A stretch of 62,938 bases of DNA, counting the filler, from Collodictyon triciliatum (Eukaryota): NCBI GenBank assembly GCA_043381765.1. It is 3 parts of 3 records of this genome, joined end to end, with 100 filler letters (N's around TTAATTAATTAA, not from the genome) between each part and the next. Parts side by side here need not be neighbours in the genome. Positions count along the whole stretch, not along the records: positions 1 to 27,027 come from JBHJMP010001000.1; positions 27,128 to 54,038 come from JBHJMP010001001.1; 1 more part is not named here. One strand, 5' to 3'. Of the stretch, positions 8,295 to 42,118 are shown piece by piece (position 1 is the stretch's first letter; each line of letters starts with the position of its first letter). The notes beneath the pieces are model-generated. The model was not told the origin of the DNA, searched no databases, and saw only the letters and a list, made by a program, of their open reading frames with translations. A program made the position numbers and the translations under genes.

Positions 8295-11200
8295 TTACAT
8301 CATCGATTTATGTATAAAAGTTGCTTCAGTAATGTCTACACTAGAATAATATATGGAATGCACAAGAACAGAGCAGAGAAGGTACCACAGCAGACCGCTC
8401 ACGATAAAAGCGAAATTTGCATCTGGTGGATGCCCCGAGCATACTCCTTCATGTCTTGCATGAGGGCAAAAGTTGGTCTGTCTTCTGGGTCTTGCGACCA
8501 GCACTGTGTGATGATGGGCAGGAGGACAGGATCTCCTCTGGCCGGGAAAGTCGGTCGGGTGCCTTTGAGCACAGCAAACGATATGTGCATCGTATCCATG
8601 GATTCGTAGGGAATTTTTTGCGTCTCAATCTCCCACAAGATAATCCCAAAGCTGTAAACGTCTGCCTTTTCGGAGTAGCGCTTCCCTTCCATCACCTGCA
8701 CTCATATTTAGACTTTTCAACAGCATAAATGTGTTGTTTTCATTCCTTACGATTAATTTTTTTTGGGTCGATTCACAGAACAATTTCTGTATGAATGGCG
8801 ATCTATTCAGAAAAGGAAAAATGGAGAGAGAAAAACCTCGGGCGCTTGATAGACTGCCGTGCCGCATCGTGTCATAGTCTGATTTTGAGCCTTGACCCTC
8901 GCAAATCCAAAGTCGCATATGTAGGGGTTGTACTGGTCATCCACCTTCGTTACGTGGGTGAAATCATACGAAAATTATGATTAGTAATACTGGAGCAGAA
9001 AAGCCGTTTAGACTAGGTAAACGCAGAAGAGAAGAATGCGAACACCTGACAATTTATGTGGTGTAAAGATTTTGATAGCAAAGAAAGTCAAATAACCAGA
9101 ATGTTGCTTGTTTTCAAGTCCCTGTGCATTATTGGGGGTTGGTGAGAGTGAAGGAATACCATCGCATTAATCACTCCTTGTGCAATCTTGTGCCTAGTAA
9201 CGAGTGTGTATATTAGCAATTTATATAGAATCACTGTATTCGCTAATAATAATAATAATAATAATAATAATAATAATAATAATAATAATAATAATAATAA
9301 TAATAATAATAATAATAATAATAATAATAATAATAATAATAATATGATAATGATGATGAAATTAATAACATGATAAGAAAGTCGCAGCCAAACTGCGGTG
9401 TAATATATATTGATTTGTGTTGGGTTGCGTATGCAAAATTGTTGAGTGGTACTTAATATCCCGATTCAGCTGTGTTTTTGTCCCCCTCAGTATAGACTTT
9501 AGGTTTCCCGGCTGTATTAGTTGGGTGATGATGGCAAGGTTTGGTGGCGTGAGACATGCAGCGATAAACGGAACGATGTTGGGATGCTTGAGTTTTCTGT
9601 TGCAGTGAAGACATTGGTGAAGAAAAAGCATATGTCATCTCAATGAAATCATAATGCAGCTAAGTTTACCATAATAACACCTATGTCTGCGCATTTCATA
9701 TAGGAAAATCACATGCATACATTTTTTTTAAAAAAAAAAACAAATCATAAAACAAGTAATTAACAAATCCTTTAATAATGTAAAAAAAAAAAAAAAATCA
9801 CCGCAACATTGAAATTTCCGACAAAAATGCGATGTAGTATTGATCTCTCGTTGTTTGCTGCAGCATTTTCTTGACAGCAACTTTTTCACCCTACAAAGAT
9901 TCATATCCGAGAGTGTTCAATACAACTCGTGCATGCATATTTCAGTCTTTTCAGATAAAAACAGCTCGGTACCTGATAGACGCCTGGAAATACAGAGCCG
10001 TATGAGCCGGAGCCGATTCTGTGCTCCTCGGTGACTATGTCTTCCCAACAGACTTCCCACTTTCTACGGGGTCGGATGTCAGGCAGCGGAACCAACCCTC
10101 TGTCGTCGGTTGTCGATAGCGATGGTCGATATGTCTCGACTATGGAGTCAGACTTTATCAGCCGAGGCAACCGAAAACTTGGAGCGTTGCTCGATGTTCG
10201 CCGCAAAGGTGGAAGGCTTGTTGTTTCCTCGATAGTCCTTGTGTGTGCCTAAATGAGGCGCGACACATTTTCAGGAACATGCAACGAAGGAACATGCAAC
10301 GAAGGAAAATGAGGAAAATGAGGAAAATGAGGAAAATGAGGAAAATGAGGAAAATGAGGAAAATGAGGAAAATGAGGAAAATGAGGAGAAAGCTTTTTCC
10401 TACTGAAGAACTTTCTGTATCATGTATTGAGTAAACTGCGAATGGACTCTCCACTTGATTCTCAGAACGGAAAAATTCTGCTCGTGGTCGCAAAACTCCC
10501 GAAAACACCTGTGTAAGAAGGATCAGTCACTTTTTATCCAAGTATTCGTACAAATTCGAACAAACTAAAACATAACATGGTAAAATAATGTGTTATATTG
10601 AAATAAAATGTCAAGAGTCAGACGCATATGTACGATTTGCCGTCCCATAAGCGATAAATAAATAAATAAATATAAATAAATTGATATTATATTTATCTAT
10701 ATAGTTAGATAAATATAATATCATAAATAAATAATAGCGGATATCGGTTGCTTAATGCTTTCCTTACCTGGAATATCTGGCTTGTTTTACCATCTCGCTT
10801 TGTTGTTTGCACAAGTGGTTCGACATTATATGAATCACTCGCACCGCTTCTTTGCTCCATAGGAATCGCCTTTGCAGATCGTATTTCATTTGTTTCAAAT
10901 TAACGGTCTGGATATGCTCTGATATTATGAATAAGATGATGTTGAGAGCTACACAAACCTCTGCAGCTTCTTCCGACATTATAACTTGACCTCCCTGGCA
11001 TTTTCGGCATAGTCGTATTGCATAGTTGATAGTCTGAATGGTTGTTTAATGAACGGGTAATTGGATTAGGTAATAGGAGCTCGCTGAATAAATAGCATAT
11101 CAACTTTTTTTTTTCGAGGTTTTATCAACCAGGAATAAAAGTATCAGAAAGAATGTTTAAATTTCAAAAAAAAAAAAGTTAATGCGAATCTTCATCACCT

Positions 11201-39700: not shown

Positions 39701-42118
39701 GCGTCTGTGAAACTAAGAACGACGATTCAAACCAACACAAAAGATTTATCGGAGAGGTATGGTGTTACAAGATTTTTTTTTCCTTTATTCGATTCAAAGT
39801 TGGTGTTACAAGAATAATCTACTGAGCTAGTTTTATTCGGGACTTTTGGGCTAATTTTGATTTCAAATGACACAGGTAGTCACAAGAGTGAATAAACTAA
39901 TTTCCATCTGCCAAGGAGGACAAACACTCATTACTGAGACTGTCTACCAAGTAATATTGTTATAGATTGATATTTCAAAAGCGGATAACAGAAAACAAAA
40001 TAAAAGAGACCAAAAGATGCGCTATTGATGTCATAAGTTTCTGTAGCAAATATCTCAGGAAATAGAAGGCATCGAAAGTGAAAATGTTGTCCGCCTTATT
40101 CGCAATTCAGAGTCGCTTCACAACAGGCTTCAGGTTTACGAGGTAATGCAACAGCAGCCTTGGTTGTTCCTATTAGATTTTTTTTTATTTCACATAGTCT
40201 TATCCATGTCAACAACATCCTCATCGACATCTAGGTAATACCAAACAAGCTAATCAAGCGCCTGCAGTACTTTGAGCATAATTCGTCCCAAATTCATCTT
40301 TCGCTGTATGCCAACGATTTGGTTAGTTTTCGTCAGAGATACGTGATGTGCCTTTTTAAAATATATTTTCTTTCCATTTATACAATAATTTCTCTATTAT
40401 CGAAGATTTCTGTACGTGGAAACACTCATCACGCTTTATCGCGAGGGAAATTTTCACCGAAATATTCATCTATGATGTTGCTGGACATAGTCACTACAGT
40501 CTGGACCGGCCGACTCACATCCTCATGCATCGATTTCCATCGACCCCGGCTCTACACAGAAGACGTCAGAGATACAAGAAGATTCGTTGGATGTCGTGCA
40601 AACCATGGCAAACAGCACCGACCGAAGTTGGAATATCAACATGAAGGATATAGTGTTGGAAGAGACGTCCATAGGGTCAGGGTCTTTTGGGACTGTTTTT
40701 ATTGGAAATTACAAGGTATTTTTCGAGGGATATCACTCGCAAAGTCCATAATTCATGGAATGCGCGATTCTTTATTATTATTATTATTATTATTATTATT
40801 ATTATTATTATTATTATTATTATTATTATTATTATTATTATTATTATTATTATTATTATTATTATTGTTATTATTATTATTTTTTGGCTGAAGAACAAAG
40901 TTGTGTGCTTACGTTACGTGGCAATAGGGTAAACGAGTAGCCGTGAAGAAAATCGGAGGAAATAAACCTGATGACCGATTTATCACATCTCTTTTATATG
41001 AAATTTCTATTCTAAAGTATGGCCCGTCTTTGCTTATTTTCAAACGAATTTACATATGGGGTGTACATTCCATGATGCTGTGCATAGCTCACGTTTCCAT
41101 TTGTAATTGGGAAAAGGAGTACGTTTGACAGCTTCTCCATTTTTCATGATATAACTATATAATCACCATAGGCGTTTAAGCCACCCAAATATTGTTGAGT
41201 TCATCGGAGCCAGCACAGACACATCCAATCTCGCATTGGTCACTGAACTGGTAGAACCAGGAAATCTTCGACATTTACTTTACAACCACGCCATCATTAT
41301 TGGACCCAGAGAAAAGTAAGAAAGACAGATAGGACATTAATATAGCTAAACACCAACAGAGGAGCATAAATTATCATGTATCAATACACTCAACCTAGGA
41401 GAAGAATTGTTGAGGGAATAATACACGGTATGAGCTATCTACATCTTCAGACGACGCCCATTCTCCATCGAGATTTGAAGTCGTCCAACATATTGGTACA
41501 TCCTCCTCTTTTCTTTCTTTCTTTCATATTCCAAGGATATCACTCTTTAAACTATTTAATCTGCTAGAATACATGTTGAGACCTGTAAAATATGACAGAT
41601 TTCTTGAAATTTTGTCATGCAGGTGACTGAAGGGTTTGAAAGCAAAATATCTGACTTTGGATTCGCAAAAATCAAGGCTGACAATCGAAAAATGACAAAG
41701 GGAGACAGTATGTGGCATCAAGCCCCTGAAGTTTGTTTCTTGATTGCAGAATCACCCAAAACAAATTGCTCACAATAACCTCGTTCCAATCCAACATGTC
41801 CCTGTACACACTTTCACGCTTCTCTCTTCCCACGCCTCTTAGGTACTTGAAGGCCGGCACTTCAACGAAAAAGCAGATGTTTATAGCTTCGGCATTCTTT
41901 TGTGGGAGATAGAAACGCGCCAAGTCCCTCACCAGGGGGCAAACTCGCTCCTTCTCCAGCTGGAGATAACAAAAGGATTGCGACCAAAGATACACACAGG
42001 CATGAATCCGTGGGCCATCCGGACAATGGAGCGCTGTTGGAATACAGACCCGGAGGTCCGACCATCATTTACAGATCTGTACGAGAGCCACTTGAGGCTG
42101 GAGGATGTAAGCGAATGA
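27732..42118 (+). CDS. Giant single-pass receptor B, paralogue of A (about 24 Kelch repeats, 2 CUB, Cys-rich/EGF-like, TM, kinase - cyclase-like - kinase)
   Basis: Signal peptide MLHTDCSLLCLLLCAATAPIF with a phase-1 intron as in A. 12+12 Kelch repeats counted. CUB starts VSDGSGVFAYFPGTQCSW and FDDGSGKALYLENTNCTW. TM GIIGGSVGGGIAVIGAALWYVF. Kinase 1 GTGSFG/VAIK/HRDLKSLN/DFG/APE. Kinase 2 GSGSFG/VAVKK/HRDLKSSN/DFGFAKIK/APE. Many intron positions shared with A. The 3' end may include one more exon. Confidence 0.88.
36351..36465. repeat. (GTTT)n, intronic
   Basis: Direct reading. Confidence 0.95.
39603..39682. repeat. (AAT)n immediately before a splice acceptor
   Basis: Direct reading; acceptor AG at 39686-39687. 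Confidence 0.95.
39760..39813 (-). mobile_element. Micro-retroposon copy 4 (insert 39773-39800) with perfect 13-bp TSD
   Basis: TGGTGTTACAAGA [TTTTTTTTTCCTTTATTCGATTCAAAGT] TGGTGTTACAAGA; TSD starts 3 nt after an intron donor of receptor B. Confidence 0.88.
40771..40881. repeat. (TTA)n, intronic
   Basis: Direct reading. Confidence 0.95.

Follow-up and report, generated by a model that had tools for sequence, protein, structure and literature searches.

The question raised by this locus is what kind of receptor results when an ectodomain of Kelch propellers and CUB domains is joined to a cytoplasmic tail carrying two kinases with a cyclase-like domain between them. The window, by which we mean the whole stretch of 62,938 nucleotides analysed (filler included), is from Collodictyon triciliatum (GenBank assembly GCA_043381765.1) and consists of three contigs joined by N-linkers at 27028-27127 and 54039-54138. 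Within it, the span 8295-42118 holds gene A (contig C1000), a p24-like gene, a linker, and gene B (contig C1001). We find that A and B are one gene each, and they probably encode single-pass cell-surface receptor Ser/Thr kinases, in which a dead cyclase domain would hold a receptor pair together and the kinases would signal.

The two genes have the same architecture: a signal peptide, two copies of a module (two six-bladed Kelch propellers, a CUB domain, and a Cys-rich region), one transmembrane (TM) helix, a TKL kinase, a cyclase-like domain, and a second TKL kinase. The ectodomain spans ∼1630 amino acids (aa) with 24 Kelch blades and two CUB domains, and the tail ∼830 aa. The features are as follows.

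8399-24344, minus strand: gene A, with ATG at 24344 and stop at 8399; 56 exons, 2520 aa; orthologue, Diphylleia rotans P0101
24263-24344, minus: A exon 1, signal peptide (hydropathy peak at residue 1)
20237-23992, minus: A exons 2-14, Kelch propellers 1 and 2 (edges read by exon; Pfam exon scan and alignment)
19101-20007, minus: A exons 15-19, CUB1 and Cys-rich linker 1 (alignment; TNFR-like match below cut-off; exon 19 edges uncertain)
15283-18897, minus: A exons 20-32, Kelch propellers 3 and 4 (exon scan, alignment, homologue model)
14214-15141, minus: A exons 33-36, CUB2 and Cys-rich/EGF-like region 2 (alignment; homologue fold model)
13859-14052, minus: A exon 37, TM helix and start of kinase 1 (hydropathy)
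12381-13858, minus: A kinase 1, TKL type (catalytic Lys, Asp, Asn, and Asp present)
10437-12084, minus: A exons 44-50, degenerate class III cyclase domain (3 of 7 catalytic positions kept)
8399-10248, minus: A exons 51-56, linker and kinase 2 (catalytic residues present)
27028-27127, no strand: artificial contig linker between genes A and B, which are not shown as genomic neighbours
27732-42118, plus strand: gene B, with ATG at 27732 and stop at 42118; 56 exons, 2491 aa
27732-27795, plus: B exon 1, signal peptide (hydropathy)
27873-31536, plus: B exons 2-14, Kelch propellers 1 and 2 (exon scan, alignment)
31627-32565, plus: B exons 15-19, CUB1 and Cys-rich linker 1 (exon scan, alignment)
32683-35926, plus: B exons 20-32, Kelch propellers 3 and 4 (exon scan, alignment)
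36029-36964, plus: B exons 33-36, CUB2 and Cys-rich/EGF-like region 2 (alignment, homologue fold model; exon 34 covered by a cDNA contig)
37043-37251, plus: B exon 37, TM helix and start of kinase 1 (hydropathy; cDNA joint to the next kinase exon)
37379-38529, plus: B kinase 1 (cDNA; catalytic residues present)
38856-40321, plus: B exons 44-50, degenerate class III cyclase domain (cDNA; 0 of 7 catalytic positions kept)
40491-42118, plus: B exons 51-56, linker and kinase 2 (cDNA; catalytic residues present)

The gene models were built with a self-trained gene model and then refined by hand; iterative self-training on all loci was rejected because it drifted into introns, and a profile-guided spliced aligner was used instead. 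Each gene is intact, with a single open frame across its 56 exons, and because the genes are intron-rich (median intron, 144 nt in A and 119 nt in B) the region contains no long frame. All 110 modelled introns are GT..AG. The two proteins are paralogues, aligning end to end at 33.8% identity, and 47 of the 55 intron positions are common to both, in the same column and phase. Given the other gene as its only profile, the spliced aligner recovered 49 of 56 exons exactly in each of A and B, a check that is partly non-independent, as these two models also supplied the training data for the splice and codon scores; exon edges are uncertain in gene A at exons 19, 31/32, and 50/51. Hydropathy identifies a signal peptide and one Gly/aliphatic TM helix before kinase 1 in both proteins, plus one further weak peak in each, inside a propeller.

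RNA run X1 contains gene B. In the region 36470-40760, 12 of 17 modelled introns are confirmed by cDNA contigs and five are unseen; because all 12 listed joints coincide with modelled introns, and a loose end of the X1 RNA continues into the next kinase-2 exon, the TM helix, kinase 1, cyclase-like domain, and kinase 2 of B are spliced as modelled, in pieces. The loose ends of this run resemble a cDNA template-switch adapter. Two bins of B (36758-37045 and 38486-38629) are without cover in X1, and runs X2 and X3 yielded only short pieces of other genes.

For the link from ectodomain to TM helix we rely on full-length transcript open reading frames (ORFs) of D. rotans and on an intron-free paralogue, C1884, which point to a continuous coding sequence. 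C1884 has an uninterrupted frame of 264 codons running from the last Kelch blade through CUB2 and the Cys-rich region to the TM helix and the kinase P-loop. Compared with 1.84 billion proteins, this frame has 86 matches, of which 21 have a propeller, and all 17 that were looked up among these 21 are D. rotans Trinity ORFs. Several are complete (2380 to 2540 aa), with Kelch, kinase, cyclase, and kinase regions, and align end to end with models of this genome at 33 to 37% identity. The preliminary description of this DNA had proposed that each receptor is a single gene with the domain order given above, and both points hold: the former from the open 56-exon frames, the C1884 junction frame, and the complete D. 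rotans ORFs, the latter from the A and B models, the same ORFs, and the fetched loci described below.

We note that C1884 (positions 4440-7260) and C8009 are 94%-identical, 5'-truncated family copies in which all introns are missing from the first Cys-rich linker onward (in C1884, to the TM exon). C1884 retains its kinase-region introns, and the two copies carry frameshifts or a stop. This looks like cDNA-mediated intron loss over an internal stretch.

A Pfam-type scan was run on 41 single exons of A and B, with Kelch families matching 18 and kinase families six; no CUB or cyclase family was reported on these single exons, nor was CUB detected in a search against PDB sequences. Pfam CUB and Guanylate_cyc were both found on full-length homologues, with CUB above the cut-off in P0032. 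Conserved Gly-Gly anchors in an alignment of 32 sequences show each protein to have four arrays of six blades. In profile comparison, propeller 1 pairs with 3 (E 2.5e-47) and 2 with 4 (E 4.6e-54), the four other propeller pairs reaching only 1e-22 to 1e-28; CUB1 pairs with CUB2 (E 1.4e-18), and the two Cys-rich parts pair likewise. This pairing supports the view that the ectodomain arose by one tandem duplication of a propeller-propeller-CUB-Cys module.

Structure prediction is consistent with these assignments. The second-module model of the D. rotans homologue P0009 (predicted local distance difference test score, 88.5; predicted template modelling score, 0.84) has a Kelch propeller at residues 11-325, matching KLHDC2 (Z 34.9, root mean square deviation [rmsd] 2.2 Å, 287 aligned residues), and a second propeller at ∼315-650 with Z of 17 to 18 to NHL-type or six-bladed propellers. 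Six-bladed Kelch propellers are thus predicted for the second module by the homologue model and for the first by its profile likeness to the second, and the 12+12 repeats and internal duplication put forward earlier agree with the blade anchors, the model, and the profile pairing. For the C1884 CUB2 model, the 22 best rows of the fold search are all CUB-containing chains, the best being cubilin (Z 10.5, rmsd 2.4 Å, 102 aligned residues). Bacterial CUB-repeat proteins make up most of the 86 C1884-frame matches (seven of seven checked); they were not adopted as a donor because their scores add up over many repeats. CUB clusters in a protein atlas scored below 0.9 and serve as a lead only.

Turning to the tail, the kinases are closest, among solved structures, to CTR1, MLK, RAF, and TAK1, and both kinases of A and B keep the catalytic Lys, HRD Asp, Asn, and DFG Asp in the alignment. 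The cyclase-homology domain between them aligns over its full length with intact paralogues and outgroup proteins, and Pfam Guanylate_cyc matches on homologues range from E 3e-4 (the clade that contains A and B) to 6e-23 (intact cyclases). We scored seven positions (two metal Asp, specificity Lys and Asp, phosphate Arg, and transition-state Asn and Arg), which match the metal, specificity, and transition-state residues described for Rv1625c (PMC4174876). A keeps three of the seven (the transition-state pair, Asn and Arg, and the second of the metal Asps) and B none; neither has the first metal Asp, and A lacks both specificity residues. The complete set of seven occurs in 6 of 23 models from this genome, in 3 of the 22 D. 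rotans proteins in which the region is present, and in 8 of 8 outgroup proteins. As read from these alignments, the cyclase domain in both A and B is a pseudo-enzyme whose catalytic set is lost, and because of this we regard A and B as receptor kinases rather than receptor cyclases. The class III cyclase-like domain named in the preliminary description is indeed present between the kinases; that its catalytic set is lost had gone unnoticed.

The domain is full length in all models of the A/B clade but C1711, with core residues conserved, and mean identity in this clade is 30% for the cyclase versus 51 to 54% for the kinases (65% for intact cyclases). Its conservation is thus relaxed, though the domain is mostly kept whole, and in some members (C1711 and P0020) it is strongly eroded or partly lost. 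In C32, C1472, and C2692 and in D. rotans P0083, P0116, and P0123 the kinase catalytic residues are lost too, and fully pseudo-enzymatic receptors are thus predicted in both organisms.

A large expanded family had been suspected from the two genes, and the paralogue count in the 75 Mb of own genome searched bears this out; the counts are minimum values, with broken copies among them. A single Kelch exon has 77 matching places, with 42 contigs at E<1e-7; the CUB2 exon has 69, the cyclase exon of the intact type 29, and that of the B type 37. Thirty loci were fetched, chosen for such matches and not a random sample, and 27 of them have the ectodomain and then the kinase, in order. The exceptions are C844, with another ectodomain, and C1330 and C8009, with only the ectodomain in the retrieved DNA. 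C844 (20800-33000) is a cyclase-intact member whose ectodomain has no Kelch or CUB match, and on the contig C360 (10000-40000) two family members stand in tandem. In D. rotans, P0265 (1551 aa) has the same tail with an intact cyclase and an ectodomain of Cu/Zn-SOD-fold domains; because it nests beside the Kelch-bearing C1058/P0260 pair, an ectodomain swap is suggested.

Trees were built with six outgroup proteins, none of them from Acanthamoeba or viruses, and included no non-family kinases; across the outgroup, two proteins are labelled Mastigamoeba after their identifier prefix. Supports are from the Shimodaira-Hasegawa-like approximate likelihood ratio test (SH-aLRT) only, and eight short tails, one non-aligning row, and five long-branch dead members were excluded. 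A and B belong to a clade of 19 members drawn from both organisms, none with an intact cyclase (SH-aLRT 100 for the whole tail and 99 for kinase columns alone). This clade adjoins relatives with an intact adenylyl-cyclase set and others with dead kinases too. Tail introns follow the same division: members of the clade share 16 to 19 of 19 with B, compared with 11 of 19 in two representatives of the other branch. Because one-to-one pairs with D. rotans occur (A/P0101, C1058/P0260, and C892/P0277; support 97 to 100), the expansion and the loss of cyclase activity are older than the split of the two organisms; these pairs also indicate that the host most likely belongs to the Diphyllatea (CRuMs). 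By these alignments the family is old and expanded and divides into branches in which the cyclase is intact, the cyclase is dead, or cyclase and kinases alike are dead. The Diphyllatea proteins form one side of a branch with support of 94 (whole tail) or 34 (kinases only). The search of viral contigs turned up a single match, attributed to chance, in a phage-like contig, and no tail alignment, so that no giant-virus member is placed; a search with the last kinase exon returned eight unspecific kinases, and one with the P0104 cyclase region only P0104's own cluster.

We favor, with somewhat better than even confidence, a mechanism in which the propellers and CUB domains bind an extracellular macromolecule, such as a glycan or protein of prey, substrate, or another cell, and this binding alters how two receptor chains pair. 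As class III cyclases act as dimers arranged head to tail, the dead cyclase domain would be retained to pair and space the chains, and the A and B kinases would trans-phosphorylate and pass the signal on. A and B alone would produce no cyclic AMP (cAMP), an output that cyclase-intact paralogues may supply. Several points weigh against this interpretation. Three B introns between CUB2 and the TM exon are without joints in run X1, no X1 contig spans the whole 36470-40760 stretch, and the RNA comparison covers gene B only, not gene A. The structure models represent homologues (P0009 and C1884) and neither A nor B itself. That the cyclase is catalytically dead is deduced from an alignment, where the second metal Asp and the two transition-state residues persist in A, the scaffold role is borrowed from other cyclases, and we infer the ligand, pairing, and activity of A and B. 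A homodimer prediction for the degenerate cyclase of P0009 scored 0.01, gave no answer, and is used neither for nor against.

An unlikely but credible alternative is that A and B partner cyclase-intact paralogues, with mixed dimers either building one active site, much like the C1/C2 pair of mammalian adenylyl cyclase, or poisoning it, thereby tuning cAMP and combinatorially widening the ligand range. Class III active sites are described as lying between two chains, with the metal Asps supplied by one chain and the residues for specificity and the transition state by its partner (PMC4174876); both organisms have intact, cyclase-dead, and all-dead members side by side, and A retains both transition-state residues. 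However, A is without both specificity residues and B without all seven, so that neither makes a good second half, and the age of the A/B clade and its 30% cyclase conservation argue against a constrained interface with the intact branch.

Somewhat more doubtful is a role of the ectodomain in adhesion or cargo uptake (cubilin or MEGF8 type), with the kinases steering phagocytosis at the feeding groove. The C1884 CUB2 fold is closest to domains of cubilin, neuropilin, and PCPE-1, CUB and EGF are described as adhesion modules and the Kelch propellers of MEGF8 as sugar-binding (PMC5792066), and Collodictyon is reported to catch prey with pseudopods at its ventral groove (PMC3351787). A shared fold is no proof of function, however; this proposal differs from the receptor-kinase interpretation mainly in emphasis and is partly compatible with it. 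It is improbable that the cyclase-like domain is a vestige giving spacing only, leaving A and B as plain tandem-kinase receptors: the relaxed conservation (30%) and the erosion in C1711 and P0020 fit such a view, but the domain persists at full length with a conserved core across most of a 19-member clade older than the organism split. That ectodomain and kinase parts are separate neighbouring genes, joined by the gene model only, would suit the three B introns unseen as X1 joints but is scarcely believable given the C1884 frame across the junction, the complete single ORFs in D. rotans transcripts, the order in 27 of 30 loci, and the absence of a second start, signal peptide, or stop at the junction.

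Receptor kinases with a dead cyclase are thus our preferred account of A and B, and their wider family invites a bolder proposal. We can imagine, though only tentatively, that dozens of Diphyllatea Kelch-CUB receptors pair through their cyclase domains in mixed active, cyclase-dead, and all-dead dimers, providing combinatorial recognition of prey or conspecifics with a switchable cAMP or kinase output, and that the kinase-cyclase-kinase receptor predates the CRuMs-Amorphea split and is not an amoebozoan invention.

The remainder of the window contains several other genes. On the first contig are a Longin/VAMP7-like SNARE gene (229-1735, plus strand; Pfam Longin) and a nearly intron-free glycosyltransferase family 92-like gene (2010-3869, plus) that is GC-rich relative to its surroundings. 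A further spliced gene-like region without a Pfam match lies downstream of gene A (4480-6400, minus), and a p24/GOLD-like cargo receptor gene, recognized by eye and unnamed by the Pfam scan of its first frame, is directly upstream of A (25165-26850, minus). Beyond gene B are HID1/dymeclin-like (42790-47310, plus), XRN exonuclease (47950-53900, minus), and UTP25 (57340-62610, minus) genes, as well as frames at 54570-57010 (minus) that by eye are like a Harbinger-type transposase-derived nuclease and have no Pfam match.

The literature searched, which excluded most subscription journals, contains no account that combines Kelch and CUB domains with a kinase-cyclase-kinase tail, or that reports such a tail from CRuMs, and the A/B family is apparently undescribed, as had been supposed. 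What is added here is the family census, the pseudo-cyclase clade containing A and B, and the history in common with D. rotans. The CRuMs are described as branching nearest to Amorphea (PMC5793813), and a kinase-cyclase-kinase receptor expanded in them makes its origin testable, as inherited from before the CRuMs-Amorphea split or transferred. The old division into enzyme and pseudo-enzyme branches offers a natural series on the role of a dead cyclase in a receptor kinase.

The closest relatives are D. rotans proteins in EukProt (EP00002; P0009, P0101, and P0260), which have an identical architecture and 33 to 37% end-to-end identity; these are unannotated database entries with Trinity names, for which no description was found. 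The intact-type cyclase exon profile matches only trypanosome GRESAG4.1 and 4.3 among solved structures (PDB 1FX2 and 1FX4; E 2e-7 and 4e-7). These are single-pass receptor cyclases of an expanded family with a different ectodomain; unlike A and B, they are active enzymes without kinases.

Attractin and MEGF8 are described as having extracellular Kelch and CUB domains and short tails, MEGF8 being a single-pass protein with CUB, EGF-like, and Kelch propeller domains that acts with a ubiquitin ligase (PMC5792066). A likeness to them had been proposed, and it holds for domain types only: the Pfam attractin/LZTR1 propeller model matches the Kelch arrays, but Kelch models also match cytosolic Kelch proteins. 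Unlike in attractin and MEGF8, the propellers are paired before each CUB, and extracellular Kelch-plus-CUB modules known from these animal proteins are here wired to a catalytic tail of ∼830 aa. Pfam reports no PSI domain family on 11 full-length homologues, and no attractin or MEGF8 chain is among the 58 PDB matches of the Kelch array or in the fold searches, the presence of such chains in those libraries being unchecked.

Kinase-cyclase-kinase ("cyclase kinase") receptors are reported from Acanthamoeba castellanii (66 to 67 genes), Physarum polycephalum (43), and amoeba-infecting giant viruses (PMC4053784, PMC4758236, PMC5804921), and have been presented as a speciality of certain Amoebozoa and the giant viruses of those hosts (PMC4053784, PMC4758236). 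The word "kelch" occurs 0 times in the main text of these three papers, though a Kelch ectodomain may be present in the domain-architecture figures of the supplements (Acanthamoeba Fig. S3.3.1 and Physarum Fig. S16). The family of A and B differs in its 24 Kelch blades and two CUB domains (none of 10 non-Kelch relatives matches propeller or CUB profiles), in a cyclase that is dead in A, B, and most of the family and intact in all eight outgroup proteins, and in a host outside the Amoebozoa. The general plan is nonetheless the one described for the amoebozoan and giant-virus receptors, namely, an extracellular domain, one TM helix, a cyclase domain with a Ser/Thr kinase on either side, and family expansion, and along its entire length the tail can be aligned with a protein from a Physarum transcript as well as with other outgroup proteins, in keeping with the relationship first proposed for it. 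By its plan, the A/B family is a version of these amoebozoan and giant-virus kinase-cyclase-kinase receptors, not of attractin/MEGF8.

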